Positions 2,751 to 63,452 of a stretch of DNA of 64,000 bases are shown here, in pieces. A model generated the notes under the pieces. The model was not told the origin of the DNA and ran no database searches. It worked only from the letters and a program-made list of their open reading frames with translations. This stretch comes from Escherichia phage AV112. The DNA lies in sequence record OR352942.1, one strand, 5' to 3'. Both the position numbers and the translations under genes were made by a program. How positions within the stretch are numbered: position 1 is the stretch's first letter; each line of letters starts with the position of its first letter.

Positions 2751-3371
2751 TTAAAGTTGAAGATACCACCCGTTGTAGTTGCTCTTGCGGACGATTTTCT
2801 TTAGATCTTCATGGTCTCCCACGAACTTTATAGAATAAGAGAAGACGTCAGGTGAGGTTTCTTTGACATCTAATATAATAATGCAATCTGCGACTCGATG
2901 GTTCAAGAAAGGCCCTATATTGATTCCATTACCACCCGGATAATCACCACTGTATCCTGTGGTAACAGAAATCCATTTAGAATCTATCTGGTGTGTCTTG
3001 ACTTCTACACGAATTCCACAATACTTGGGATGGGCTAACACGTCCCATGCATACGTGTACGGGTCTTCTACGTCTTCAATACCTTTATTAACATATCCGT
3101 CTAGCCAATTTGCTACTACATACTCTGCAAAGACCGCAACCTTACAACGTCGAACTACATCTTCTTTGTTTTGGTCAGGATTTTGGCTCAGGGAATACCG
3201 AGCAGTGTCAGCAATCTTCACCTTCATTTCACTAGTCAAAAACTCATTCGACAGGATAAATGTCGGAAGATTCTTCAGTCTCAACAGTCCCAAGTTCGTC
3301 TTTACCATAGATACCTCTGATGTGTAGTTCGCCAAAATAAATGCGGTCACCTTCTTCAAGATATTCTGCAT
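2751..3371 (-). CDS. hypothetical protein; true start probably internal (ATG at 3227, about 159 aa) because the first ATG overlaps the upstream ORF by about 128 nt
   Basis: ORF-track ORF; sits where T4 has denB but I see no diagnostic motif. Confidence 0.4.
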   Translation of the reverse strand: MQNILKKVTAFILANYTSEVSMVKTNLGLLRLKNLPTFILSNEFLTSEMKVKIADTARYSLSQNPDQNKEDVVRRCKVAVFAEYVVANWLDGYVNKGIEDVEDPYTYAWDVLAHPKYCGIRVEVKTHQIDSKWISVTTGYSGDYPGGNGINIGPFLNHRVADCIIILDVKETSPDVFSYSIKFVGDHEDLKKIVRKSNYNGWYLQL

Positions 3372-3531
3372 CTACCGGTGGGATTTCAATAACAACTTCG
3401 TCGCATTCTAACCAGCCGTAGTGTGCATCACCAGGATGTTTTACCAATTTAGCGCAATAAACTGATTTACACTTATGATGACCACGAAGATTAGCAATTT
3501 TGGATTCTGATACGTCAAATGGATGAATCAT
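3244..3531 (-). CDS. hypothetical Cys/His-containing protein (about 95 aa)
   Basis: ATG at 3531 with AGGGG Shine-Dalgarno immediately after the rIIB terminator; sequence MIHPFDVSESKIANLRGHHKCKSVYCAKL. Confidence 0.4.
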   Translation of the reverse strand: MIHPFDVSESKIANLRGHHKCKSVYCAKLVKHPGDAHYGWLECDEVVIEIPPVDAEYLEEGDRIYFGELHIRGIYGKDELGTVETEESSDIYPVE

Positions 3532-3545
3532 AATTACCCCTAAAG

Positions 3546-3570
3546 AAAAAAAGGGGACCAAAGTCCCCAA
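3546..3570 (-). terminator. rho-independent terminator downstream of rIIB
   Basis: Minus strand GGGGAC-tttg-GTCCCC followed by TTTTTTT. Confidence 0.6.
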
Positions 3571-3573
3571 TTA

Positions 3574-4521
3574 TTATTCTGCAAATAATTCAGTAACGTC
3601 TGAAATTACTTCATAACGACAAGTACGCATCTTAGCATCACCATAGTCAACTGGGATGGACACAACATCACGTGGATGAACTTTAACCTTAACAACTTTA
3701 TCTGAGCTAGAACCAAAGTAACGAATATATGATTTAGCACAAACATGTAGACCACGGGAACAAGTTTGTGTATCGTCATCGTTAACACGAGTACGAGGCA
3801 TTGAAACAACTTTACCAGGCGAGTTATCAAATGTGCCGCTATAGCAATCTAAATAGTCTTTACGAACTACTTTCCATGCATAGAAATGCCCATCTTCAGT
3901 GATTTCAATATCGTTTGCAACCAAGAAGTCGAATAAACGTTGTACAGCTTTTTCGCTTGGGTTTTCTAACAGGTTTTCAAGGAATGGCAGATAGAATTTA
4001 AAGTCTTCGCCTTTTTCCATGGAATCAATAATACGGTTAACCAGTCCTGAACGAATTTCTATACCTTGATAAAATAAACTACCACCTTCAATAGTAACAT
4101 TACCGTCAACAAACTTACTAATAGCTTTCTTGATGTTAATAAGTTCGACAGCTTTACTAAGGTTTCCTGCGACCAAATTAGCTTTAATTTCTTCAAAATT
4201 TGCATGACTTGATGGGGTCGCATTGTATGCTACGCGTCCTTCAATAATTGAAATAAATTTAGATGACGCGTTCCATACGATTTCTGGACGATGACCGCCG
4301 ATAATAGGTTCATCATTTTCTGGAACTTCTTCGATTACATAAGAGGCATCGTTTGCTTCAGGGACAACGCCTTCTGCTTTAAAATTCTTAACAATCTTAC
4401 GAAGAGTATCTGTTGAAATGTCGAAGTAATCGGCAATTTCTTTACGAGTCCATTTGCCTGATTCAACCAGGCCATAAGCTTCTAACTGTTCTTCTTGGGA
4501 CAAGCATTTAATATTGTACAT
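3574..4521 (-). CDS. rIIB: rIIB protein (315 aa)
   Basis: Length and N-terminus MYNIKCL resemble T4 rIIB; immediately downstream of rIIA as in T4. Confidence 0.7.
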   Translation of the reverse strand: MYNIKCLSQEEQLEAYGLVESGKWTRKEIADYFDISTDTLRKIVKNFKAEGVVPEANDASYVIEEVPENDEPIIGGHRPEIVWNASSKFISIIEGRVAYNATPSSHANFEEIKANLVAGNLSKAVELINIKKAISKFVDGNVTIEGGSLFYQGIEIRSGLVNRIIDSMEKGEDFKFYLPFLENLLENPSEKAVQRLFDFLVANDIEITEDGHFYAWKVVRKDYLDCYSGTFDNSPGKVVSMPRTRVNDDDTQTCSRGLHVCAKSYIRYFGSSSDKVVKVKVHPRDVVSIPVDYGDAKMRTCRYEVISDVTELFAE

Positions 4522-4530
4522 AATGTTTCC

Positions 4531-6744
4531 TTATTTGGCCGCTTCCACGGCCTTCATGAATTTAACGATTTGAGCGACTTGTTCTTTAGAAAGAGTACCA
4601 CGTCGTCCCATGTAGTCTGACACAATATGATAATTGGTTTCGAATTCAATAACCATTTTATCATCATTATCGTAAGCATTATCTTTAAGCTTATCGAAAA
4701 TTTTAGCACACAATTCTAACTTCTTATTCAGTTCTGTATTAGTAGCACCTGCGAATCGATTCCATCCCCAACGATTATTTACTGTTGAGAGTTTTGCAAA
4801 ATCTTTACTGATTTCTTTGTTTTTAGAGCTAAAATACTTACTAAGGAAGTTAAGCTCTTCATTACGAGTAATATGATTCAAATAAGGCTGTGCTCTACGA
4901 CTTGGTGATACATACTCATCATAATCCACTTTATCGATTAGCGTAATATAGTCATTAATTGATTTTTCGAACAAGCATTCTACTTCACCAAGTTTACGAA
5001 CTTTCTTAGCAATCTGTGGACGAACTACAGTGAACTCTTTAATACCTGACAAATCAGCAATACGGGTCAAGAAATTGGAGTCATAGTTCAACCAACCTTT
5101 ATCTGCGTCAAGACATTCAGCATTAGAACGATTACGAACTATAGCATAACCTTGGATTTTATCAGCTTCACTCGCTGGAATAAAGAGATCTTCTGATACC
5201 CAAACATCGTTTTCATTCTTAAAGAACCGATGAGCACTTGGGGATTTAGGACGAGGCCCATTAGAACGAGTCTTGACTTCAATCCATGGCTTAACGATTT
5301 GTAAAAGCTCTGAAGTCTTGTACATGTTAATGTTGTCGCCATCAAAGATAACTTTAAGGCGTTCCAGAAGTTTCATTGCATCTTCGTCTGTAGGGTCAAC
5401 GAATAGTACGCTTTTACCAAAACCGCGTGGAACTTTACCGGTTAATTTAACCTCGTCTTTAGACATTTCAATTGAATTAAGAGCTCGCATTAATGGAACA
5501 CGTCCCTTAACGTCGTCAATAACAATTTCAACGTTTTTAATGTTAATACCAATCAGACTGTTAATTGAAATAGTTGCAGATGAGCTACCACTTTCACGAA
5601 TACGACGAAGACGAGGGTCTTCAATGATATCGTATACGACGCCGAGATTACACCATTCAGGTCCCATTTTAAAACGTTTGTACAACTCTGAATAAGTTAG
5701 TTGTTCTTTAGAGTATTTCAGTGATTCAATATTAGACCCAGCCTTTTCCATGTATTTACGAGCAGTATAGCCAAGAGAATCAATTTCACGGAACACATGA
5801 CGCGGGTATTTACAATCAATCCATTTCTTAGAATCTTCAGCGAACAATTTAGCATCGATTTCTGCAACGCGTTTATGGATATTTGCTACTGTACGTTTAT
5901 CAAATGACAATGCTTCACGAGACGGGGCTACATCTAGTTCACCCATAGGGAATTTAATATAAGCTGTAGTGCATCGCGTCATCATCCATGTTTGTTCTTT
6001 AATAACACTTCCGATTGGATATACAATACCACCATAAACAGCCATGATATTACCACGTTCACCCCATGGAGCTTCCTTGGCTAAATAAACATCGTCGAAT
6101 TCCGGGAAGTATTTGATATCTTTAACACCACGAACTTCTGCAATATCACCGAGAGGACGCATAACATATGCAATTTCAGATGCGAACTTTTCAAAATCTT
6201 CTGGGTTAACCGGTACAACTACTTCTACACCAGTACGATCATCAGGACCCATCTTATCTACGAAGGTTGGCTTAATCTGTGGACCACTGTCATCTTGATA
6301 AATTACATAACCACGAACTTCACCGTTGTGATAAGACGTAAGGTTAAACGTATCGGTATATGCTAGTGGAGCTTTAGAGCCGAGACCGAATCCACCAATG
6401 AAATCGTTACTCGATGTTTTAGTTGAAGCAAAATATGAGTTATAGATTCCTGGCTCTTCGTCATTACCTCGAATGGTGAAATCACTCATACCAGGACCAA
6501 AGTCTCGAACTACAAAACGTGGGTCTAAACGACCTGGGGCCTGAACAATAAACTTATCAGTGCAACCATTAAGAATTTGACCATCGATACAGTTTGTGAT
6601 TAATTCACGTACACAAGCCAATTCTTTGTTTGTATAAAGGTCATTAGACAAAATCTTATAAACTTTGCTATTGCCTTGAATAGTAAATGCTGTGCTCTTA
6701 CCGCCTGAACCAATAATCGTTTCTTTAGCCGTTTCAATAATCAT
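4531..6744 (-). CDS. rIIA: rIIA protein (737 aa) with N-terminal GHKL-type ATPase fold
   Basis: GHKL-like motifs ELITNCIDG, VRDFGPGM and GGFGLGSKA; size close to T4 rIIA; synteny with rIIB and 39. Confidence 0.8.
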   Translation of the reverse strand: MIIETAKETIIGSGGKSTAFTIQGNSKVYKILSNDLYTNKELACVRELITNCIDGQILNGCTDKFIVQAPGRLDPRFVVRDFGPGMSDFTIRGNDEEPGIYNSYFASTKTSSNDFIGGFGLGSKAPLAYTDTFNLTSYHNGEVRGYVIYQDDSGPQIKPTFVDKMGPDDRTGVEVVVPVNPEDFEKFASEIAYVMRPLGDIAEVRGVKDIKYFPEFDDVYLAKEAPWGERGNIMAVYGGIVYPIGSVIKEQTWMMTRCTTAYIKFPMGELDVAPSREALSFDKRTVANIHKRVAEIDAKLFAEDSKKWIDCKYPRHVFREIDSLGYTARKYMEKAGSNIESLKYSKEQLTYSELYKRFKMGPEWCNLGVVYDIIEDPRLRRIRESGSSSATISINSLIGINIKNVEIVIDDVKGRVPLMRALNSIEMSKDEVKLTGKVPRGFGKSVLFVDPTDEDAMKLLERLKVIFDGDNINMYKTSELLQIVKPWIEVKTRSNGPRPKSPSAHRFFKNENDVWVSEDLFIPASEADKIQGYAIVRNRSNAECLDADKGWLNYDSNFLTRIADLSGIKEFTVVRPQIAKKVRKLGEVECLFEKSINDYITLIDKVDYDEYVSPSRRAQPYLNHITRNEELNFLSKYFSSKNKEISKDFAKLSTVNNRWGWNRFAGATNTELNKKLELCAKIFDKLKDNAYDNDDKMVIEFETNYHIVSDYMGRRGTLSKEQVAQIVKFMKAVEAAK

Positions 6745-11903: not shown

Positions 11904-11958
11904 ATTATTCTCCTCTGGTTGATATGGTTATAATATCAAAACCAGAGGAGAAGTAAAC
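11904..11958 (-). promoter_or_regulatory. PeSL-like early promoter/stem-loop cassette
   Basis: Minus strand GTTTAC-N17-TATTAT; perfect 12-bp inverted repeat TCTCCTCTGGTT (11909-11920) / AACCAGAGGAGA (11940-11951) enclosing the -10 and containing the SD. Confidence 0.55.
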
Positions 11959-13404: not shown

Positions 13405-13464
13405 AATGTTTTCCCGTTTGGTTAAGATAGAAAGATTATACTCCAACCATCCTTGGTTGTAAAC
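13405..13464 (-). promoter_or_regulatory. PeSL-like early promoter/stem-loop cassette; member of a roughly 45-70-bp direct-repeat family
   Basis: Minus strand GTTTAC-N18-TATAAT; GTTAAGATAGAAAGATTATACTCCAACC[A/G]TCCTTGGTTGTAAACTG recurs at 55862-55907. Confidence 0.55.
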
Positions 13465-23290: not shown

Positions 23291-23349
23291 TTTAACTCCT
23301 TAGTTGATTTGATAGGACTACTATACCATAGTCCATCTATAATGTAAAC
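23291..23349 (-). promoter_or_regulatory. PeSL-like early promoter/stem-loop cassette upstream of sp
   Basis: Minus strand GTTTAC-N18-TATAGT; inverted repeat TAGGACTA/TAGTCC; GGAG Shine-Dalgarno. Confidence 0.5.
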
Positions 23350-24350: not shown

Positions 24351-24498
24351 ATGCTTTAACTAATGCGTTGTTCACTTCAGCAAGTTGTACCGTAACCCAC
24401 TCGATTTCTTCGCGATCACCTGATAACATAATATCTTTAGTGAACATCTCGCCGCTTTTAAACCAACCTATAAAAGTAACTTTAGTTAATTTGCTCAT
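24307..24498 (-). CDS. dmd: Dmd antitoxin-like protein (about 63 aa; start at MSKLTK)
   Basis: Sequence FIGWFKSGEMFTKDIM...AEVNNALVKAFVNDEKVFEADFRG closely resembles T4 Dmd as recalled; position upstream of 41. Confidence 0.65.
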   Translation of the reverse strand: MSKLTKVTFIGWFKSGEMFTKDIMLSGDREEIEWVTVQLAEVNNALVKAFVNDEKVFEADFRG

Positions 24499-24812
24499 AT
24501 TTCCTCGCAAAATGCCCATTCAGCGTGATAAACTGTAGCACCTTTAGTATCATTCATTTGAACTACGTCTACCGGAGAAATTACTCGATAGAGACGTGGT
24601 TCACCTCCATAAGAGCGTGCTGCTCGTCCTGCATAAATCTTTGCTAAACCGATATCTTCAGTAAAGAATACACGATCCAAGTTTTTCTTACGTCCAGTTT
24701 CAGACAGAACTCCTGTTTCCTCAGGAGGACAAAGCATGTTTTCGATGTTAGCTGAACTACTTGAACCGTGATAAAAAATCTTAAATTCTGCTTTACAATC
24801 GATGGTTTTCAT
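24495..24812 (-). CDS. hypothetical protein (105 aa)
   Basis: ORF directly downstream of a PeSL cassette. Confidence 0.4.
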   Translation of the reverse strand: MKTIDCKAEFKIFYHGSSSSANIENMLCPPEETGVLSETGRKKNLDRVFFTEDIGLAKIYAGRAARSYGGEPRLYRVISPVDVVQMNDTKGATVYHAEWAFCEEI

Positions 24813-24868
24813 TTTGTTCTCCAGTAGTTGATAGGTCTATAATAACACAACTACTGGAGAAGTAAACT
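24813..24868 (-). promoter_or_regulatory. PeSL-like early promoter/stem-loop cassette
   Basis: Minus strand GTTTAC-N17-TATTAT; perfect 12-bp inverted repeat CTCCAGTAGTTG (24819-24830) / CAACTACTGGAG (24848-24859); 31-bp core identical to 58491-58521. Confidence 0.55.
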
Positions 24869-25242
24869 TAAAAACGTAATTTAGATACGTCTGCGTTGAT
24901 TTCGTTTTGGTTTGCGTCGTATGCAATTAAACGAACCGCTTTAGATTGGTCATTCAATGCATAGAAATGATGGAACATTGCTCGAACGATATCACCATTT
25001 ACGAGTTCTACCTGGATAGGAGAACCTTTTTCGAGTTGGAAATGTTCATAAGCTTTGATGGTTCGCAGATAATCAAGTTTTTGATTTCCGGCTCCAACAA
25101 TTTGTACGATACGTTTGCCCATGTTTTCCATACGAGATACAATAGTTTTAGGAGCAAGAATAACGTAGGTTGCCAGCGGAGAAACTACTTCAACAGTTGT
25201 GTTTTCGGTGATTGCAGTAAAAATTGCTTGAGACATATTCAT
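24868..25242 (-). CDS. hypothetical protein (124 aa)
   Basis: ORF-track ORF. Confidence 0.4.
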   Translation of the reverse strand: MNMSQAIFTAITENTTVEVVSPLATYVILAPKTIVSRMENMGKRIVQIVGAGNQKLDYLRTIKAYEHFQLEKGSPIQVELVNGDIVRAMFHHFYALNDQSKAVRLIAYDANQNEINADVSKLRF

Positions 25243-25301
25243 AATGTTTTCCTCTTGGTTTGTGTAAGTACATCATATCATGCCTAGAGGAAGATGTAAA
25301 C
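25243..25301 (-). promoter_or_regulatory. early promoter cassette
   Basis: Minus strand GTTTAC-N18-TATGAT; GAGGA Shine-Dalgarno. Confidence 0.45.
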
Positions 25302-25305
25302 CCCG

Positions 25306-25330
25306 AAAGGAGACCGAAGTCTCCTTTTTG
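25306..25330 (-). terminator. UUCG-tetraloop hairpin immediately downstream of gene 41
   Basis: Minus strand AAAGGAGAC-ttcg-GTCTCCTTT. Confidence 0.5.
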
Positions 25331-54897: not shown

Positions 54898-55847
54898 TAT
54901 AAAACCTCAATGGCATTTCGTAAACCATCCGCTTTTGCATTCAGAGCTTTTAATGATTTAGTTTGTTCTGCAATCTGGGCTTCAACTTCTTTCAGACGAG
55001 ATTTGAGGTATTCGCGTTCTTCTCTTAAGTTATCAACTTTTTCTGCTTTAGGCTCTTTAATAGGCTTAGGTTTATACGTATTAGGGTTCTTCAGTTTAAT
55101 TAGAATGCGTGAACTGTACAGCATTGAACCATTATCTTCGGTTTCGTCATACATTTCCACTACGTCCATCATCTCCACCATCGTGCAGAGTTTATAAGAC
55201 AACGAACGAATAGTTTTGTTGTGCTTATTAATTTCTTTAGAGTTCATGGTGCCTAGATTACGCGAGTAGTAATAAGGAACCTGGATATCAACTGACAATG
55301 ATGCGTTACCATTGCCAGTTGGTTTGAATACTGCAGTAACCCAATCTTTAACATGAACTTTATTTGTACGGCCATCACCGCCAGTGAATAATTTACGAGA
55401 ATGTTTAAAAAGCATATTCACTTGGTTATTGAATTCACAAGCAAATTTATCAGCAAATTTAGTTTCAGGAATGGTAGATAACCAATCAGCTAAATGAGTC
55501 TTTTTAACATCGTTAATAATAGTAAATTCAACCAAATCAGTTTTAGATGTCACAGATTTAATAAAGCTCGGCTTCATAAAGTTTTTAATGTTATCGCGAG
55601 CTACAGTAGAAGATAATAAACGAGAACGTTTGAACCATTGAAGCAGTGTCCCTAATGAATGAGAATACGCATTCTGAGTATCTTTACAGATATGATTTTC
55701 TTGGCCTGTGTATGTACCAAAATCGCGAAGAATACCGCTTACTACAACTCGGTGTGGAACATCAAATCCTAATGAACCAGAAGCACGTTGGGCATGAACG
55801 TTAGCGATAAGACCTGCAAAATAATCAATGTAATGTGAACGTGTCAT
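54897..55847 (-). CDS. hypothetical protein with C-terminal coiled coil (316 aa)
   Basis: C-terminal heptad-rich stretch KVDNLREEREYLKSRLKEVEAQIAEQTKSLKALNAKADGLRNAIEVL. Confidence 0.45.
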   Translation of the reverse strand: MTRSHYIDYFAGLIANVHAQRASGSLGFDVPHRVVVSGILRDFGTYTGQENHICKDTQNAYSHSLGTLLQWFKRSRLLSSTVARDNIKNFMKPSFIKSVTSKTDLVEFTIINDVKKTHLADWLSTIPETKFADKFACEFNNQVNMLFKHSRKLFTGGDGRTNKVHVKDWVTAVFKPTGNGNASLSVDIQVPYYYSRNLGTMNSKEINKHNKTIRSLSYKLCTMVEMMDVVEMYDETEDNGSMLYSSRILIKLKNPNTYKPKPIKEPKAEKVDNLREEREYLKSRLKEVEAQIAEQTKSLKALNAKADGLRNAIEVL

Positions 55848-55905
55848 AATATTTTCCTCTCGTTAAGATAGAAAGATTATACTCCAACCGTCCTTGGTTG
55901 TAAAC
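55848..55905 (-). promoter_or_regulatory. PeSL-like early promoter cassette; direct repeat of 13405-13464
   Basis: GTTAAGATAGAAAGATTATACTCCAACCGTCCTTGGTTGTAAACTG: 45 bp with 1 mismatch to the copy at 13421. Confidence 0.55.
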
Positions 55906-55909
55906 TGAT

Positions 55910-56842
55910 TTATGATTTTAATGCATTCATTGCGTTAAAAAGTTTAGAGTACTGCAACTGGAGCTTGGTAACTACTTGTTGAGCATCACGAAGCTTAGCT
56001 TGTGCTTTGTCAAGTTCAACAGACAGTTGATCCACAGTGCCTTTGATTTGATTATAATAGTAATCTTCGGCAGGAAGAAGGCCGTTAGAGATTTCCAGTT
56101 TAGTCGTCGGTGTGCCGTTAAACATAACAGGTTGTGCTGAAGCTGCATTAATCTTACCGATAGTCGGGGCGACAATAATTGACGCTTCGAACGTTGCATT
56201 TTCCTTTTTAAGATTTTGATAGTATTCAGAGTCTTTGTGCCACCATGGCGCAGGAACCTTTTTACCAATAGATACACGAGCCTGGATAGCGATATGGCCC
56301 TTATTCTTGATAACGTCGATAATATTAAGCTCACGAGAATAAATTGCTTTAATCTGGTGAATATTATCACCTAACACTTCCAACGCTTGGTGGAATACAC
56401 GAGCAACGTTATCATTCTTAGGTTTATACGTAAGAGTGAACTCGTTCTCACTGATAACCATGATTTCTAACTTATCGTAAGTATATTTCAAATGTTTCAT
56501 GTTAATTGCTTGAGGACGAATACGAGAAGCAATGGCCATCAGATTGTTAAGGTTATTCCGGAACTGCTTAGCGAAATATTGTCCTTCACCACCAATACAA
56601 AAATTACGAAGTTTCTGTTTGGCTAATAAACGGCTGAACTCACCGTTTTTAATGAACTCTTTAACGGGTGTGTTAGTAACGCATTCAAATTGAGTAAACT
56701 TACGAGAAGTAATCCCATAATATGAACAGATTTCCTCAATCTCTTCAGGAGTCTTTACAGGCATACGGATAGGATTAGGACCTGGGGTATATGCGTTCGA
56801 GGTAAATTCTTTGATAAGTTCTCTACGTGTAATAGAAGCCAT
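55910..56842 (-). CDS. hypothetical protein with C-terminal coiled coil (310 aa)
   Basis: C-terminal DQLSVELDKAQAKLRDAQQVVTKLQLQYSKLFNAMNALKS. Confidence 0.45.
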   Translation of the reverse strand: MASITRRELIKEFTSNAYTPGPNPIRMPVKTPEEIEEICSYYGITSRKFTQFECVTNTPVKEFIKNGEFSRLLAKQKLRNFCIGGEGQYFAKQFRNNLNNLMAIASRIRPQAINMKHLKYTYDKLEIMVISENEFTLTYKPKNDNVARVFHQALEVLGDNIHQIKAIYSRELNIIDVIKNKGHIAIQARVSIGKKVPAPWWHKDSEYYQNLKKENATFEASIIVAPTIGKINAASAQPVMFNGTPTTKLEISNGLLPAEDYYYNQIKGTVDQLSVELDKAQAKLRDAQQVVTKLQLQYSKLFNAMNALKS

Positions 56843-56897
56843 TTTATATTCCTCATGTTGAAAAATTTATTATACTCCAACCATCCTTGGTTGTACA
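56843..56897 (-). promoter_or_regulatory. PeSL-like early promoter cassette (same repeat family)
   Basis: TATTATACTCCAACCATCCTTGGTTGTACA. Confidence 0.5.
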
Positions 56898-57893
56898 TCA
56901 TTCCTTAAGAAGTTTTACTACTTGAATAAGATTAGCTCGTTCTGTTTTATTTTTACCGTTTAAGCCTGCTAATCGTGAGATTTCATCGTCAGTCTGTTGA
57001 ATAGTTACATTAAGTTCGTTAATCAAAGCTTCAAAGTATTTGATTTGCTCAGCATGTTTTGATTCAAATTTCTGAACCGGAATAACGTCTTGGTTTAGTT
57101 CATCAATAAGGTCTTTAAGAGCATCTTCTTGATTGATATCATATTCAACTTCTTTTATTTCTTCAACGAGCTCGTCTTTATATCTAACGTCTTTTAGTCC
57201 TGGTGCTGGTCCTGAAATCTCTTCTTTAAGAGTACAAACATATCCAATACGGTATCCAATGCCGTCTCGCTTGATATCAACTTCGTCAATAAATCCACAA
57301 TGTTTAAGACCAGAGCCGATTAAGTCAAAATATCCTTGACGACGTCCTTCAAACGTTACACGAACTACTAAGACAGTTTTACCTGCAACCTTTTGAAGCT
57401 CACATTTATAAAAGTTTGTTGAACCTGAATAACGTGGATGAGTTTTAAAGTTCATCTGACGATCTAGGCCCATTTGTAAGCGTGCTGATACGGCCATAAA
57501 ACGTGTTTGGTTCTCGTTAAGATGAGCAACAATCCATTTCAAAGGCATTTTACACTGTTCACGACCGAACAAATCAGTACGTCCTAGATTACGCAGGATG
57601 TTGTTAGAGTTAATCATCGACAGAACATTAAGTTTATTCAGCGCGCTGAAGATTCCATCAGCCATTGATTTTCCGTAACCTTTACACGCTTTAATAAGCG
57701 CTCGCGGTAGATTAGCATAGATTTCAGACGGCATATGAAAATCAAATTTACTAGTCAGTAATTGATGAACTTGGATAGCAATTTGCTCATAATTAAGTGC
57801 TCTGCGATCATTATGATCTTTAAACCACACTTTAATCTGTGAAGCACATAAACCGTTAATTTCATGTTTTACCGCATCAGATGTAATGCTCAT
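56898..57893 (-). CDS. hypothetical protein with C-terminal coiled coil (331 aa)
   Basis: C-terminal EQIKYFEALINELNVTIQQTDDEISRLAGL... Confidence 0.45.
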   Translation of the reverse strand: MSITSDAVKHEINGLCASQIKVWFKDHNDRRALNYEQIAIQVHQLLTSKFDFHMPSEIYANLPRALIKACKGYGKSMADGIFSALNKLNVLSMINSNNILRNLGRTDLFGREQCKMPLKWIVAHLNENQTRFMAVSARLQMGLDRQMNFKTHPRYSGSTNFYKCELQKVAGKTVLVVRVTFEGRRQGYFDLIGSGLKHCGFIDEVDIKRDGIGYRIGYVCTLKEEISGPAPGLKDVRYKDELVEEIKEVEYDINQEDALKDLIDELNQDVIPVQKFESKHAEQIKYFEALINELNVTIQQTDDEISRLAGLNGKNKTERANLIQVVKLLKE

Positions 57894-57955
57894 ATCTATT
57901 TCCTCAGATTGAATTGGAACTCAAAACCATTATAACCCGTCCTTGGGTAAAGCGT
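57894..57955 (-). promoter_or_regulatory. degenerate promoter cassette (MotA-box-like aaaCGCTTTA - 13 nt - TATAAT)
   Basis: Minus strand CGCTTTACCCAAGGACGGGTTATAAT; related to the repeat family. Confidence 0.35.
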
Positions 57956-58483
57956 TTATGCGTGAACCGTCTTTAAACGTTCTTCAAATTTCCGAAGAGT
58001 ACTAATACGTTCTGCTTTCTGTTTTGTATAGTTTGCAATACGTTCTGAAGTGAGAGCGTATCGTTCGTTTACTGTTTCTTTCATGAAGTCAGGGATTTCA
58101 CGAGAAGCTTTAATTTCATCAAACTTATCGAGTACTGCCTGGTCTTCAGCGATTAAATTTTCGTACATCTCGATATCTTTCTTGATGAAGTCGATATCTT
58201 CCTGGGTTACTTTGGATAAACGAGATGCTTTATCCTTTTTGTATTGCTCGTTAGTTTCACGAGACCAGAATAATGTACGTTTTTTGTTAGTGTTTTTGTA
58301 GACTTCCACAATTCCAACTGAATCGATGATAGCAATCCAATTCCAGCGAGATTTGAAAATCTGACCTCCGTCCACGGTAATCTCGTTACCATAAGCAACA
58401 TCATTAAAGAACTTGCTTTGTGCTTCAGATTTAAATTTACCGTCGTTATAATTTACCAGGTTGAAAATATCTTTAGCGTTCAT
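57956..58483 (-). CDS. hypothetical protein (175 aa)
   Basis: ORF-track ORF downstream of a PeSL cassette. Confidence 0.4.
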   Translation of the reverse strand: MNAKDIFNLVNYNDGKFKSEAQSKFFNDVAYGNEITVDGGQIFKSRWNWIAIIDSVGIVEVYKNTNKKRTLFWSRETNEQYKKDKASRLSKVTQEDIDFIKKDIEMYENLIAEDQAVLDKFDEIKASREIPDFMKETVNERYALTSERIANYTKQKAERISTLRKFEERLKTVHA

Positions 58484-58540
58484 GTTTTACCTCCAGTAGT
58501 TGATAGGTCTATAATAACACAACCATAGACCTTGTAAACA
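58484..58540 (-). promoter_or_regulatory. PeSL-like early promoter/stem-loop cassette
   Basis: Minus strand GTTTAC-N17-TATTAT; shares a 31-bp core with 24819-24849 but the downstream stem arm is replaced by ATAGACC, which pairs with GGTCTAT. Confidence 0.55.
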
Positions 58541-58541
58541 A

Positions 58542-58829
58542 CTAAAAGAAACTTTTTTCGGTATTTTTTCCACTGAACCAAACCGACTTCGGGACTTTCT
58601 GTAATTTTTCGGATTTAAGTTTCTCTTCCTGTTCTTTCTTATATGCATCCTTGTCGTACTGGAACAATTCTAAGGCATTCTTTTGTAGACGGTCTAAGGT
58701 AATTAAGGCTTTAGTTTTTCCTTTCAAGGAAGAGTCCTGGCGAACCTCCTCGCTATATTGCATCGTAGAACTAACCATACGATGAGCATACAGTTCGACT
58801 GCGGCTTTAATTTTTTGCATAAAATCCAT
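58542..58829 (-). CDS. hypothetical protein (95 aa)
   Basis: AGAGGA Shine-Dalgarno before the ATG. Confidence 0.4.
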   Translation of the reverse strand: MDFMQKIKAAVELYAHRMVSSTMQYSEEVRQDSSLKGKTKALITLDRLQKNALELFQYDKDAYKKEQEEKLKSEKLQKVPKSVWFSGKNTEKSFF

Positions 58830-58967
58830 AACATATCCTCTTTGATTTGTACACCATTATTTTTAAATATTTCTATGCCCTCAGTAGGTTCCTGGTGTCC
58901 TTCTTTGAGGTAAGCCATATGATTATTCATCTTTATGGCTTTTGTTACCTCAGAACTTCCTATAAGC

Positions 58968-59948
58968 TTATTTCAGTAAAGTAACTTCAGAGATTTCCTC
59001 CCAACCATCTTTATCAGTTGAAATAAAATCTGCTACATAAAGAGCCGTACGTAATGATACATTGCGAAGACGAGATACATTAGCCTTCATCCAGGACAAT
59101 GCTTTATACGTTTCTGCATCTGTCAGACCACGTTTCTGCATCATGTCAGTAGATAATATTACATCTTCAACTCGAACCATAATCTCTTCATTAGAGTGTA
59201 CTCCAAGGTCGAGATACACTGAACGAGATACTAAAGCTTGAAGGTGTGGGGCAAGTTTCGAACCGCGTTCTAACTCTTTATCGATATCAACGTTTGTAAT
59301 GAAAACGATAGTACCTTCAAACTCAAATTCTTTATCAATACCCTTATCATCGAGATAAGATGACGCAGTGCTCCAACAAACTTTGCGTTTATCTCCAGTA
59401 TCTAATGCTGCTTTAAGAAGGTTCAAGATGTCCATATCTGAGAATACGTCAACGTCGTCGATTAAGAGAACGCTGTCTGCATCACGGTTGAGCCAAAGTT
59501 GTTCGTAAAGGCCAATACCGGAGATTTTACCATTAATGCTTTTGTATTTGATGAAACCATTATCATTAGCGTTATTAAGTGCTTTATCCAGAGAATACGT
59601 CTTACCAATACCGGCTGCACCTGAAATAATGAGTGAACGAATTTTGCCATCGATAATGCCATTCGTCATCATGTTCATTACTTTAAAGCGTTTGTTGATA
59701 CGAGTTTTCATATCTTCAGTGCTTTCAACAACTGCAACTGGTGACGTCTCAACTCCTTCCATTACGATGTCTGATTTGAAGACCCATACTCCACGTTCAG
59801 ACCCATCAATCATAACGAAAATTTTACCATCACCTAAGTGGGAACATTCAGGATTAAGCTTTGCTGGGAACCATGTCTTTGTGGCAACATAAGAACCAGA
59901 GATTTCGTTATTACGATAAATACCTTTTTTGATTTGAACGTTGAACAT
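58968..59948 (-). CDS. P-loop (AAA-like) ATPase, about 326 aa (start at MFNVQ)
   Basis: Walker A GAAGIGKT, Walker B LLIDDVD; the second ATG has a GGAG Shine-Dalgarno. Confidence 0.5.
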   Translation of the reverse strand: MFNVQIKKGIYRNNEISGSYVATKTWFPAKLNPECSHLGDGKIFVMIDGSERGVWVFKSDIVMEGVETSPVAVVESTEDMKTRINKRFKVMNMMTNGIIDGKIRSLIISGAAGIGKTYSLDKALNNANDNGFIKYKSINGKISGIGLYEQLWLNRDADSVLLIDDVDVFSDMDILNLLKAALDTGDKRKVCWSTASSYLDDKGIDKEFEFEGTIVFITNVDIDKELERGSKLAPHLQALVSRSVYLDLGVHSNEEIMVRVEDVILSTDMMQKRGLTDAETYKALSWMKANVSRLRNVSLRTALYVADFISTDKDGWEEISEVTLLK

Positions 59949-60015
59949 TTTATTCTCCAATTTACTCATTTCGTTTCGATAGGTCTATAATAACATGTTT
60001 AAAGCAAAAGTAAAC
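59949..60015 (-). promoter_or_regulatory. PeSL-like early promoter cassette
   Basis: Minus strand GTTTAC-N17-TATTAT with GATAGGTCTATAATAAC core. Confidence 0.45.
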
Positions 60016-60017
60016 AA

Positions 60018-60236
60018 TTATTTGCGACGAGATTTTTTGGTAAGAGGTTGAAAGAACACTGCTTTACCTGCTGGGGTTAAGGTGACTCGTAATGCATTAC
60101 CGATTCCTAAGGATGCTTTAACTAGACCTTTAGCTTTCAGTTCACCGAATGCTTGACGTTGGTCTGCATCACGAGTGTTAACCATAAGACCTTTATCACC
60201 TGCTTCACGAATCATTTCTAACATTTTGGTTTTCAT
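60018..60236 (-). CDS. hypothetical basic protein (about 72 aa; start at MKTKM)
   Basis: ORF-track first ATG lies in the PeSL cassette; GAGGAG Shine-Dalgarno before the internal ATG. Confidence 0.4.
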   Translation of the reverse strand: MKTKMLEMIREAGDKGLMVNTRDADQRQAFGELKAKGLVKASLGIGNALRVTLTPAGKAVFFQPLTKKSRRK

Positions 60237-60292
60237 TTTGTTCTCCTCTTGTTTTGATAGGTCTATAATAACATATCCTAAAAGCATGTACA
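60237..60292 (-). promoter_or_regulatory. PeSL-like early promoter cassette
   Basis: TGTACA -35-like, TATTAT -10, GATAGGTCTATAATAAC core. Confidence 0.45.
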
Positions 60293-60314
60293 CTACTTTT
60301 TAAAAATATTTTAA

Positions 60315-60340
60315 CCCCCTAAAGGGACCCGAAGGTCCCC
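60315..60340 (-). terminator. UUCG-tetraloop terminator hairpin
   Basis: Minus strand GGGGACC-ttcg-GGTCCC followed by TTTAGGGGGTT. Confidence 0.5.
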
Positions 60341-60344
60341 ACAT

Positions 60345-60626
60345 TTACTTATCGCACTTAGCAACATAATTAGGCATATCACAGAATACGGAGCGAGTAA
60401 CTACTCGGCCCTTTGACCATGCTTCAGTTGCTTGTCCGGCTGTGCTATTAATATAGCTTGATCTAATGTTCTCAATACCCTGAGAATGTGATGCATTTAC
60501 CGAACCATTAGAAGACCCAGAAGACTGGTTACCACCAGCTCCTGCGCTACCGCTGGCTGCACCCGTGGTAGCACCAACAGAGAATGCCATCATTACTGCG
60601 AATAAACCAATTACTATTTTTTTCAT
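60345..60626 (-). CDS. secreted Gly/Ser-rich protein with signal peptide (93 aa)
   Basis: MKKIVIGLFAVMMAFSVGA signal peptide; low-complexity G/S region; two C-terminal Cys. Confidence 0.45.
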   Translation of the reverse strand: MKKIVIGLFAVMMAFSVGATTGAASGSAGAGGNQSSGSSNGSVNASHSQGIENIRSSYINSTAGQATEAWSKGRVVTRSVFCDMPNYVAKCDK

Positions 60627-60657
60627 ATTTACCTCAAGTTAATGGTTATTTATCTAC

Positions 60658-61647
60658 TTATTTATAGTAAGAATTATGATTTTCGAGATAGACTTGTTCA
60701 AGGAAGTCATCCCAGAAACTCATATCTACTTTTTGTTGCATACCGTTCTTGGCAGCTTGTTCTGATGCATGTTCAACTTGGTCAACGATATCTTCTAGGA
60801 ATTCTTGTACAGTTTTAAACGTATGTTTACCAAGCTTAACATCGAGAATAAATGGAGCATCCTGAAGTGGGTAAACCAGGTCGCCGGTTTTATAAATTTC
60901 TAATAGTTGAAGTCCACCACGACATGCATGACTCAATGCTTTCCAGTCAATACCTTCGTTAGCTTCTGCCTTACGAGCACGTTCACCATAGTTCTCTTCC
61001 AGTTTAACCAGGATGGCATTGAACTCTTTATTGGTTAACGTGTCTTGGAATTTACGGTCTAACAGATTATAGAATGTTTGCTTACCTGTTTTCTCGTTTT
61101 CAGTTTCAACCCACGAAGCAAATTCACCTACAGGCAGAACATTCTTCATATGTGATAAACGAATTACTGCACCATTATCAAAGTATTGTCCCCATTCATT
61201 AGAACGTTTAAGGGCTTGACGAAGAACAGCCAGTCGAGAACCCTTGACACCGTATTTAGAAGCTTGTTTACGGACATACCCTAAATAAGATTTCATGTTA
61301 GTGGTATAGAAACGAGACCTGTTATCTTGAATATACTTCCATACATCAGGCAAATCGGATTTAACTACTAAACTTGGTGGAGTGTGAAGCATATCTAATG
61401 CGACGGTTTCGCCATCTGCAGCTAGTTTAAAGAAATATTTGAGACTATACAACTCATGGTCCACGTCGTCTTTTGTGTTCTTAGAAGATGTGTTATTTGT
61501 GTTCTTGCTCATATGTTCTTTAACGTTACCGGTCAAGATATCACGAGCATGAGGGACATAAATTTCTTTAAAATCGACGTCAGATTCAGGAGTAGACGTT
61601 CCATAAAGGTGGCTACCAAAGTAGCCTTTCATAATTGTTTTCATCAT
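60658..61647 (-). CDS. nucleotidyltransferase-fold (pol-beta superfamily, MNT-like) protein, 329 aa
   Basis: N-terminal GSHLYGTSTPESDVD matches the G-S-x(9-13)-D-x-D NTase motif. Confidence 0.45.
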   Translation of the reverse strand: MMKTIMKGYFGSHLYGTSTPESDVDFKEIYVPHARDILTGNVKEHMSKNTNNTSSKNTKDDVDHELYSLKYFFKLAADGETVALDMLHTPPSLVVKSDLPDVWKYIQDNRSRFYTTNMKSYLGYVRKQASKYGVKGSRLAVLRQALKRSNEWGQYFDNGAVIRLSHMKNVLPVGEFASWVETENEKTGKQTFYNLLDRKFQDTLTNKEFNAILVKLEENYGERARKAEANEGIDWKALSHACRGGLQLLEIYKTGDLVYPLQDAPFILDVKLGKHTFKTVQEFLEDIVDQVEHASEQAAKNGMQQKVDMSFWDDFLEQVYLENHNSYYK

Positions 61648-62117
61648 TTGGCCTTATATTCGAGAGTAGGACAGATTTTTTCTTTACGAGCTTTAAGGTA
61701 TTCACCTATTAATGATTTCTTACGTTCAATAGGCTCAAGACCATTTTTAATTCGTTCTTGGTTTTGTGCAATGAGCTCAATTTCTTTATAATATTTTCTG
61801 TCGTTATATTTGTCTAACAACCAAGACGGACCAATTACCAACCCGGTAGCAATAAAAGCCATGACTGCTACCATTAAAATGCCTACACCAATTGAGGCCG
61901 GAACTAATGTCCATAGACTGCTAAAAACAAAGAATCTAGTTAAAATTTCCTGGCCAATGATTACTACTGCTGCTAAAATAGCAAATCCAATAATTGAAAC
62001 AGACAATACTGGGATTAACGTTTTCCAAAAATAAGCACACAACGTTTTCGGGCGATTCCATGTACTATTGAACGCGGCATAAATTTTAAAGTGCCAAGAG
62101 TTTTCATTGATAATCAT
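61644..62117 (-). CDS. membrane protein (157 aa, about three TM helices)
   Basis: Hydrophobic segments; overlaps the start of the NTase-fold gene by 4 nt. Confidence 0.45.
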   Translation of the reverse strand: MIINENSWHFKIYAAFNSTWNRPKTLCAYFWKTLIPVLSVSIIGFAILAAVVIIGQEILTRFFVFSSLWTLVPASIGVGILMVAVMAFIATGLVIGPSWLLDKYNDRKYYKEIELIAQNQERIKNGLEPIERKKSLIGEYLKARKEKICPTLEYKAK

Positions 62118-62945: not shown

Positions 62946-63003
62946 TTTGTTCTCCATTTGTTTTGGTAGGATTACTATATCATAGTCCTACCAAGACGTA
63001 AAC
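62946..63003 (-). promoter_or_regulatory. PeSL-like early promoter/stem-loop cassette
   Basis: Minus strand GTTTAC-N18-TATAGT; inverted repeat GGTAGGA/TCCTACC; GGAG Shine-Dalgarno. Confidence 0.5.
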
Positions 63004-63396: not shown

Positions 63397-63452
63397 AACG
63401 TTCTCCTCTAGTAAGTAAAGACTACTATAACACAACCTGAGGAGAAGTAAAC
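63397..63452 (-). promoter_or_regulatory. PeSL-like early promoter cassette
   Basis: Minus strand GTTTAC-N17-TATAGT; inverted repeat TCTCCTC/GAGGAGA. Confidence 0.5.

Follow-up and report, generated by a model that had tools for sequence, protein, structure and literature searches.

Two sites in the genome of Escherichia phage AV112 (OR352942.1) raise the question of whether it is a hairpin, and not one given sequence, that is kept around a promoter and, if so, what such a hairpin does. The stretch analyzed, referred to below as the window, is 64,000 nucleotides (nt) long and belongs to a Mosigvirus, an RB69-like T4-type coliphage. The original prediction, made from the letters alone, had noted that a 31-nt sequence at positions 24819-24849 (site 1) recurs at 58491-58521 (site 2) with a different stem partner. 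We found that both sites are T-even early-promoter cassettes of the promoter-early stem-loop (PeSL) kind, an element already described in T4-type phages (Arbiol et al. 2010, PMC2839356; Comeau et al. 2014, PMC4122927). On the basis of predicted RNA folds, we also consider it fairly probable that one arm of the stem at site 1 masks the Shine-Dalgarno (SD) sequence of the downstream gene, RB69ORF040c (ORF040c), in RNA that reads through from upstream.

The 31-mer CTCCAGTAGTTGATAGGTCTATAATAACACA was found exactly at both positions and had no other match in the window at up to three mismatches, with 0 matches expected in shuffled sequence. The identical block is actually 33 nt long (24819-24851 and 58491-58523), and a GTTTAC hexamer lies at an equal distance from it in both copies. 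Every gene around both sites is carried on the minus strand, and on that strand the two sites have the same layout: an upstream stop codon, the -35 hexamer GTTTAC, 17 nt, a TG-extended -10 box TATTAT, a leader of about 20 nt, an SD, and ATG. Site 1 reads TAA, GTTTAC, 17 nt, TATTAT, agaccta, and tcaactactGGAGaacaaaATG into the start of ORF040c. Site 2 reads TAG, tt, GTTTAC, 17 nt, TATTAT, the same leader, and GGAGGtaaaacATG into the start of nrdC.8. The -35 and -10 boxes are located at 24862..24867 and 24839..24844 in site 1 and at 58534..58539 and 58511..58516 in site 2; TGT precedes the -10 in both, and the -10 of site 2 falls partly within the stem and partly within the loop. The SD is spaced as GGAG-N6-ATG at site 1 and as GGAGG-N6-ATG (SD at 58490..58494) at site 2. 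The upstream stop codons lie in AT-rich tracts, acgtttttaa at site 1, with TAA abutting the -35, and aaaaaagtttcttttag at site 2, with TAG 2 nt before the -35.

A consensus scan found both minus-strand promoters with their TG-extended -10 boxes. At the orthologous nrdC.9/nrdC.8 junction, a -35 and a -10 signal are marked in the T4 record, and in that of Mosigvirus SA35RD the depositors placed a "T4 early promoter" at the site 2 orthologue, where it overlaps a predicted terminator hairpin. Judged from these signals, both sites are T4-type early promoters on the minus strand. From sigma-70 promoter geometry, transcription by the host's sigma-70 RNA polymerase would begin some 7 nt past the -10, at 24832 (an A, the 7th nt past the box) and at 58504. 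The original prediction had instead read the -10 as TATAAT on the plus strand. This TATAAT reverse-complements part of the minus-strand -10 region, and with all genes on the minus strand it would serve no plus-strand gene; we rejected the plus-strand reading because the minus-strand motif has -35, TG, -10, SD, and ATG in register. A promoter-like match, TTTACC-18-TATAAT, does occur on the plus strand at 58486-58515 (10/12 positions, no TG), antisense to the nrdC.8 start; it has no plus-strand open reading frame (ORF) after it, and it probably arises incidentally from the palindromic, TATA-rich -10. A scan of IMG/VR for the shared leader returned 4 loci only, all Mosigvirus-like.

From the -35 to the SD, the two sites are alike except for the 10 nt right after the -35, which read TTCTCCAGTA in site 1 and AAGGTCTATG in site 2. 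These 10 nt supply the 5' arm of the stem at each site and are complementary to different parts of the shared block. At site 1, CTCCAGTAGTTG (24819-24830) pairs with CAACTACTGGAG (24848-24859) over 12 bp, as had been claimed, and the stem extends to 14 bp with the flanking TT/AA. Its 5' arm on the minus strand, TTCTCCAGTAGTTG (24848..24861), lies within the -35/-10 spacer, upstream of the inferred start, while its 3' arm, CAACTACTGGAGAA (24817..24830), lies in the leader and contains the SD GGAG (24819-24822). At site 2, AGGTCTAT and ATAGACCT form 8 bp (58505-58512 / 58525-58532). As minus-strand RNA, this stem grows to 11 bp, with 8 Watson-Crick and 3 extension pairs, two of them G·U, between the spacer arm AGGTCTAT(GGT) (58522..58532) and (ATT)ATAGACCT (58505..58515), which covers the end of the -10 and the discriminator and stops just before the inferred start. 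The site 2 stem exists as predicted, but its ATAGACC arm is at 58525-58531, 2 nt away from the position first given (58523-58529 reads CCATAGA). The two stems are also not equivalent structures around the same -10, as had been supposed: the 14-bp stem of site 1 joins the spacer to the SD-bearing leader, whereas that of site 2 joins the spacer to the -10 end and discriminator and produces no SD masking beyond chance.

To evaluate the stems statistically, we folded the minus-strand RNA and compared it with dinucleotide shuffles. Site 1 folded with z = -5.65 and site 2 with z = -3.43, each better than 200/200 shuffles, and a third cassette, whose -35 starts at 11958, gave z = -5.37. A census identified 20 early-promoter cassettes in the window and 25 in T4 (KJ477684.1), which was used as an independent replicate genome. 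In the permutation test, each spacer was scored by its longest stretch perfectly complementary to the region downstream of it, with mismatched pairs and derangements as the control. In the window, the mean for own pairs was 6.50 nt, compared with 4.88 nt for mismatched pairs, and a stem of at least 7 bp was present in 8/20 cassettes versus 8.7% of mismatched pairs; no derangement out of 3000-5000 reached the observed values (0/3000 for each of these two). The T4 replicate gave a mean of 6.32 versus 4.54, with 10/25 cassettes reaching at least 7 bp versus 4.7% (0/3000). The stems in T4 comprise, among others, a 10-bp one at the dmd promoter, one reaching from spacer to SD at the regB promoter, and two of 14 bp. 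The hairpin that bridges the -10, as at site 2, is the most frequent class in both genomes. The 14-bp stem of site 1 is far beyond chance, and complementarity between spacer and downstream sequence is nonrandom throughout the window and T4. No curated RNA family accounts for the stems: in Rfam 15 the hits were at chance level (26 bits against a gathering threshold of 66, and 17 against 105), and membership in a known family was rejected.

We then compared the cassettes with those of related phages. The site 1 region is 100% identical to that of Escherichia phage AV113 (OR352943.1) and 98.7% identical to that of RB69. At the nrdC.9/nrdC.8 junction, four genera have four different stems: AGGTCTAT / ATAGACCT around the -10 in Mosigvirus, GTTCCTC / GAGGAAC from spacer to SD in T4, CTCCAGTAG / CTACTGGAG from spacer to SD in Dhakavirus (9/9 in CLBP2, 8/9 in JS10), and AGTATGGG / CCCATACT around the -10 in Gaprivervirus. 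Site 1 has a close paralogue in the T4 denV cassette, whose leader is CTACAGGAG and whose spacer is CTCCTGTAG, where site 1 has CTACTGGAG and CTCCAGTAG; the two stems differ by a compensatory swap of A-U for U-A. Upstream of the ORF040c orthologue, Gaprivervirus genomes have a GC-rich hairpin followed by a T-run, with the -35 hexamer in the loop; here GGGGC-ttaca-GCCCC (MN01, SP18) is replaced by GGGGG-tgtaca-CCCCC (VR7), a compensatory G-C to C-G change. Together with the permutation tests, these replacements support the view that structure is maintained in the cassette family and across genera; for site 2 taken alone, the support is weak.

What the hairpins could do depends on where transcription begins. 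Since both 5' arms lie upstream of the inferred starts, the hairpins would form only in RNA made from upstream or in single-stranded DNA. At site 1, RNA from the promoters of ORF041c and gene 41 would bury the ORF040c SD in the 14-bp helix, and RNA from the site's own promoter would lack the 5' arm and leave the SD free. In agreement with this proposal, the predicted probability that the SD is unpaired was 0.00 in read-through RNA versus 0.74 in own-promoter RNA, and 0/40 shuffled-upstream controls were as low. Cassette 11958 (11904..11958, minus strand) has the architecture of site 1 in another sequence, with spacer TTCTCCTCTGGTT and leader AACCAGAGGAGAA forming 13 bp with z = -6.9 (SD unpaired probability 0.00 versus 0.48). 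A third clear case, cassette 63452 (63397..63452, minus strand), pairs spacer TTCTCCTC with GAGGAGAA (0.00 versus 0.74). The ORF041c stop codon lies 8 nt ahead of the arm at site 1, where a terminating ribosome could briefly melt the helix, and the model may thus need to be refined by translational coupling. At site 2, the hairpin bridging the -10 may act as an attenuator, a 3'-end stabilizer, or an insulator of read-through RNA.

A design of this kind is known for the T4 genes e, soc, 49, and I-TevI, whose promoters are nested in the 5'-strand region of an SD-burying helix; the long transcripts are silent, and the promoter-proximal ones are translated (PMC3014915 section 29, PMC2988022). Site 1, cassette 11958, and cassette 63452 are predicted to have the identical geometry: the 5' arm of site 1 lies in the -35/-10 spacer, so the transcript from the inferred start at 24832 would not carry the 5' strand of the helix. 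The T4 examples, however, have late promoters (TATAAATA), and of the known SD-sequestering genes with nested promoters it was stated that every one is a late gene (PMC2988022). The promoters here are of the early sigma-70 type (GTTTAC/TATTAT), and no TATAAATA late promoter was found in the cassette at either site. Since the nested promoter is early, the predicted gate is early-only. Judged from the predicted folds, site 1 works like the e/soc/49/I-TevI family but is not a member of it.

Several results weigh against this reading or restrict it. Two substitutions in the site 1 stem within Mosigvirus are uncompensated, CAACT to CACCT in RB69, where the spacer is also 1 nt shorter (16 nt), and CTACTGG to CTACCGG in ST0 and JM17. 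LF82-1 and QL01, whose cassettes sit directly after the gene 41 terminator, keep the leader without a long spacer-SD stem, and their CTCC/GGAG match is only 4-5 bp. At site 2, the Mosigvirus alignment contained one-sided changes only and was indistinguishable from shuffles (395/500), the 8-bp stem alone is marginal (about 5.6% of mismatched spacer/downstream pairs reach 8 bp), and the predicted SD accessibility (0.12) was within chance, with 33% of shuffles as low. Over 44 cassettes from both genomes, mean SD masking with the native upstream sequence did not differ from that with a shuffled one (0.37 versus 0.37, p = 0.86). Two tests for action at the RNA level also gave no significant result: sense versus antisense minimum free energy (MFE) gave p = 0.79, and G·U versus A·C extension of the stems gave a combined p = 0.20. 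Finally, the published interpretation of PeSL stems is that of terminators or attenuators, although the experiment behind it was done only on a GC-rich stem of phi1 (PMC2839356).

These results limit what can be claimed in different ways. SD masking as a general property of early-promoter cassettes was rejected by the shuffled-upstream control; because native upstream sequence does not exceed a shuffled one in masking over the 44 cassettes, SD masking is a minority class. Strand asymmetry gave no proof of RNA-level action, as neither of its two tests was significant. Covariation within Mosigvirus likewise gave no proof, there being too little variation (395/500 shuffles at site 2 and the two uncompensated changes at site 1). 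Compensatory changes were found only in wider comparisons, as the denV swap and the VR7 versus MN01 change, with none significant within Mosigvirus, and the proposal that a hairpin rather than a sequence is maintained is borne out by the permutation tests, the four stems in four genera, and the denV swap, but not by the uncompensated site 1 substitutions, which show that strict maintenance does not extend to every pair. The predicted SD masking was nevertheless kept in the RB69, ST0, and JM17 variants, with the SD fully paired in the ensembles of all three, as well as in T4 denV, CLBP2, and JS10.

The marginal status of the site 2 stem raises the possibility that no structure is selected there. 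In that case, the 8-bp stem would be due to chance, or a by-product of cassette recombination and the palindromic, TATA-rich -10, and only the promoter and leader would be functional. The frequency of 8-bp matches among mismatched pairs and the chance-level SD masking agree with such an explanation, as does the invariance of the 8 core pairs in Mosigvirus, which leaves no covariation signal. However, stems of 7-14 bp bridging the -10 occur in about 40% of cassettes in two genomes, compared with the 5-9% expected, and the orthologous locus of Gaprivervirus has an unrelated 8-bp stem at an equal position. Furthermore, all variation of site 2 in Mosigvirus is in the loop or in the two G·U pairs, which change to A-U or G-C. 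We regard the absence of a selected structure at site 2 as highly improbable.

It was proposed for PeSL cassettes that the stems stop or attenuate transcription from upstream, so that each small gene is insulated and driven by its own promoter only. The stem of phi1 PeSL211/210 cut lacZ expression about as strongly as rrnB T1 (PMC2839356), and the SA35RD depositors, using WebGeSTer, entered a rho-independent terminator at the site 2 orthologue. The Gaprivervirus orthologues of site 1, in which a GC-rich stem enclosing the -35 is followed by a T-run, are true terminator/promoter composites of the RB49-type PeSL form. The stems in the window, in contrast, are AT-rich, and no T/U run follows either of them: the nucleotides directly after the stem are CAAAAUG at site 1 and AUCAACUAC at site 2. 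The consensus scan found no terminator-like site at either cassette, and the true intrinsic terminator after gene 41, GGAGACttcgGTCTCC-TTT, 430 bp upstream of site 1 (hairpin at 25309-25324, minus strand), looks quite different. We rejected an intrinsic (rho-independent) terminator at both sites, since neither has a GC-rich stem with a U-run or a scanner hit, and we judge termination or attenuation in general to be an unlikely role for these stems. As a separate observation, the terminator scan flagged a terminator-like hairpin, CTCCTGAGGAAACAGGAG, with a T-rich tail inside the ORF040c coding sequence (24710-24727, minus strand).

On the other hand, the inverted repeats may work at the level of DNA, forming hairpins where recombination or replication intermediates are single-stranded or being recognized by a structure-specific protein, and so promote cassette exchange, with the RNA structure being incidental. 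Some Mosigviruses are without ORF041c. EP02SG corresponds to the window minus ORF041c and one cassette: the deleted segment begins at the SD of cassette 25301 and ends at that of site 1, and AGAGGA is joined to GAACAAAATG at the junction, where the two SD regions meet. LF82-1 also lacks ORF041c but has its crossover at the -35. In the metagenomic Mosigvirus L003, the 60293 promoter is joined to the 60015 gene via a shared TATTATAGACCTATC core, and the small ORF between them is lost. These three junctions are cassette-to-cassette exchanges as predicted by the PeSL model, and as new examples of such deletions they support a role of the cassettes in gene shuffling.

The location of these junctions within cassettes, together with the lack of a significant sense-strand bias in wobble pairing or MFE, is what would be expected of a DNA-level element, and the authors of the PeSL work raised, as speculation, the idea that a recombination protein binds the stems (PMC2839356). 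Nevertheless, the junctions fall at the shared core or SD and at the -35, outside the stems, and the arms differ between cassettes, so no sequence-specific binding would be possible. The loops, counting Watson-Crick pairs only, are 12-17 nt, a size unfavorable for cruciform extrusion. In addition, T4 recombination requires only short patches of homology (PMC2839356), which makes the stems unnecessary for it. We consider a purely DNA-level role quite improbable. In the reading that we favor, the conserved cores themselves serve as homology patches for recombination between neighboring cassettes, by which the intervening small genes are deleted or swapped.

The assignment to the PeSL family rests on the full arrangement rather than on the stem alone. 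Both sites have the AT-rich upstream stop, the sigma-70-type early promoter, the stem-loop of variable position, the SD, and the ATG; there are many copies (20 in 64 kb) next to small genes, in line with the association of PeSL cassettes with small non-essential genes or ORFans, of unknown function, in plastic regions; and indel junctions between close relatives fall at cassettes. The PeSL definition gives five stem positions, between the -35 and -10, overlapping either box, upstream of the -35, or downstream of the -10 (PMC2839356), and GTTTAC-N17-TATTAT fits the T4/PST promoter form TTTACW-N17-TAYWAT (PMC4122927). The cassettes also differ from those described. The stems of RB49 and phi1 are of the form G(n)-loop-C(n), and the one tested acted as a terminator; those of PST and T4 are "just upstream" of the promoter. 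The AT-rich stems here have no T-run after them and span the -10, reaching from the spacer into the discriminator or SD. RB69-type (Mosigvirus) phages are outside the analyses of PMC2839356 and PMC4122927, and SD masking is mentioned in neither.

Repoila et al. (1994) reportedly described early-promoter boxes that recur on the flanks of the internal-protein (IP) loci in T-even phages. The cassettes at these loci are considered analogous to PeSLs, with weaker AT-rich stem-loops of variable size (PMC2839356). As in those boxes, T4 early promoters form the basis of the elements described here, and the close site 1 paralogue is the T4 denV/ipII cassette, with TACTATAGACCTATCAACTACAGGAG, which is itself at an IP locus; but the boxes were described for IP loci only, whereas the cassette type seen here occurs at gene 41-dmd, in the nrdC region, and throughout the early regions.

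By itself, the finding of known promoter and stem-loop cassettes in an RB69-like phage adds little. The more useful by-product is quantitative: in two genomes, the early-promoter spacers are each specifically complementary to their own downstream sequence. SD burial in read-through RNA only, although it is a minority class, appears to go further, as the reviews of T4 document this design for late genes only (PMC3014915, PMC2988022). The predicted subclass of SD-masking stems nested around early promoters may go beyond the PeSL papers and the T4 reviews, and the older T4 literature may already describe it. If the prediction is true, SD masking would be a simple way for a phage to link translation of an early gene to the gene's own promoter, and the resulting early-only gate would mirror the late-only one of e/soc/49/I-TevI.

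RegB is known to cut its own SD. In the T4 regB promoter (-35 at KJ477684.1 position 62786), the stem runs from spacer to SD, pairing TTCCTCTT with AAGAGGA, and the SD is predicted to be unpaired with a probability of 0.00 when RNA reads through and of 0.94 when it starts at the regB promoter itself. The RegB/S1 consensus in early SDs is GG*AGRAYARAA, and secondary structure protects against RegB (PMC3014915). The SD context of site 1, GGAGAACAAAA (24812-24822, minus strand), fits this consensus at 11/11 positions. This match is a property of the leader rather than of the stem, however, and site 2 (GGAGGTAAAAC) fits at 8/11 only. The RegB gene is absent from the window and would lie just outside it. 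The match at site 1, seen in the sequence, is a lead, not a finding. The same 11-mer also occurs downstream of cassettes 63003 and 60293.

A broader proposal can be put forward only tentatively, and we think it possible rather than likely: early-promoter spacers would routinely hold an arm complementary to their own downstream sequence, and about one-sixth of the cassettes would bury the SD in read-through RNA only, creating an early-only translation gate that, combined with a perfect RegB site in the same SD, would confine synthesis to the first minutes of infection. The candidates for this sixth, from predicted folds, are site 1, 11958, and 63452 in the window and the regB promoter and others in T4. 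It is even more speculative to suggest that the repeats bridging the -10 are the cis element behind the abrupt, still unexplained shut-off of early promoters.

At site 1, the gene order is gene 41, ORF041c, ORF040c, and dmd. ORF041c (24868..25242, minus strand) is upstream, its TAA stop codon (24868..24870) directly abutting the -35, and ORF040c (105 amino acids, 24495..24812, minus strand) is downstream, with dmd overlapping its 3' end. At site 2, nrdC.9 (58542..58829, minus strand; stop codon TAG at 58542..58544, 2 nt ahead of the -35) is upstream and nrdC.8 (57956..58483, minus strand; ATG at 58481-58483) is downstream. Pfam was run on the four flanking proteins and matched neither ORF040c nor ORF041c; the only match was DUF7203 in nrdC.9. 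In the AV113 record (119500-126000, approximately 55500-62000 of the window), essentially all nrdC.N genes are named "thioredoxin", whereas in RB69 the same genes are called NrdC.8, NrdC.9, and so on, conserved hypothetical proteins. The AV113 labels look like a name propagated from nrdC rather than a real function.

Other cassettes of the window have related features. The neighbor of site 1 upstream of ORF041c (25272..25324, minus strand), the deletion partner in EP02SG, has the promoter GTTTAC-18-TATGAT (25272-25301), in which the spacer TTCCTCT is the complement of AGAGGAA in the SD region of this cassette, downstream of 25272..25324. Two cassettes at 59987..60293 (minus strand, -35 boxes starting at 60293 and 60015) have a common TGTTATTATAGACCTATC core. 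A pair of cassettes 42 kb apart, at 55876-55905 and 13435-13464 (minus strand), is nearly identical over about 44 bp, GTTTACAACCAAGGA[C/T]GGTTGGAGTATAATCTTTCTATCTTAAC; each has a small stem, CAACC/GGTTG, within the spacer, and their lone difference is in its loop. A subfamily of four cassettes at 2197-2226, 2709-2738, 23320-23349, and 62974-63003 (minus strand), of the form GGACTATG[AG]-TATAGT-AGTCCTATC, has an inverted repeat centered on the -10. In this subfamily, cassette 2226 has GGATT and cassette 2738 has GGACT, both opposite AGTCC, and GGATT gives a G·U pair in the sense RNA.

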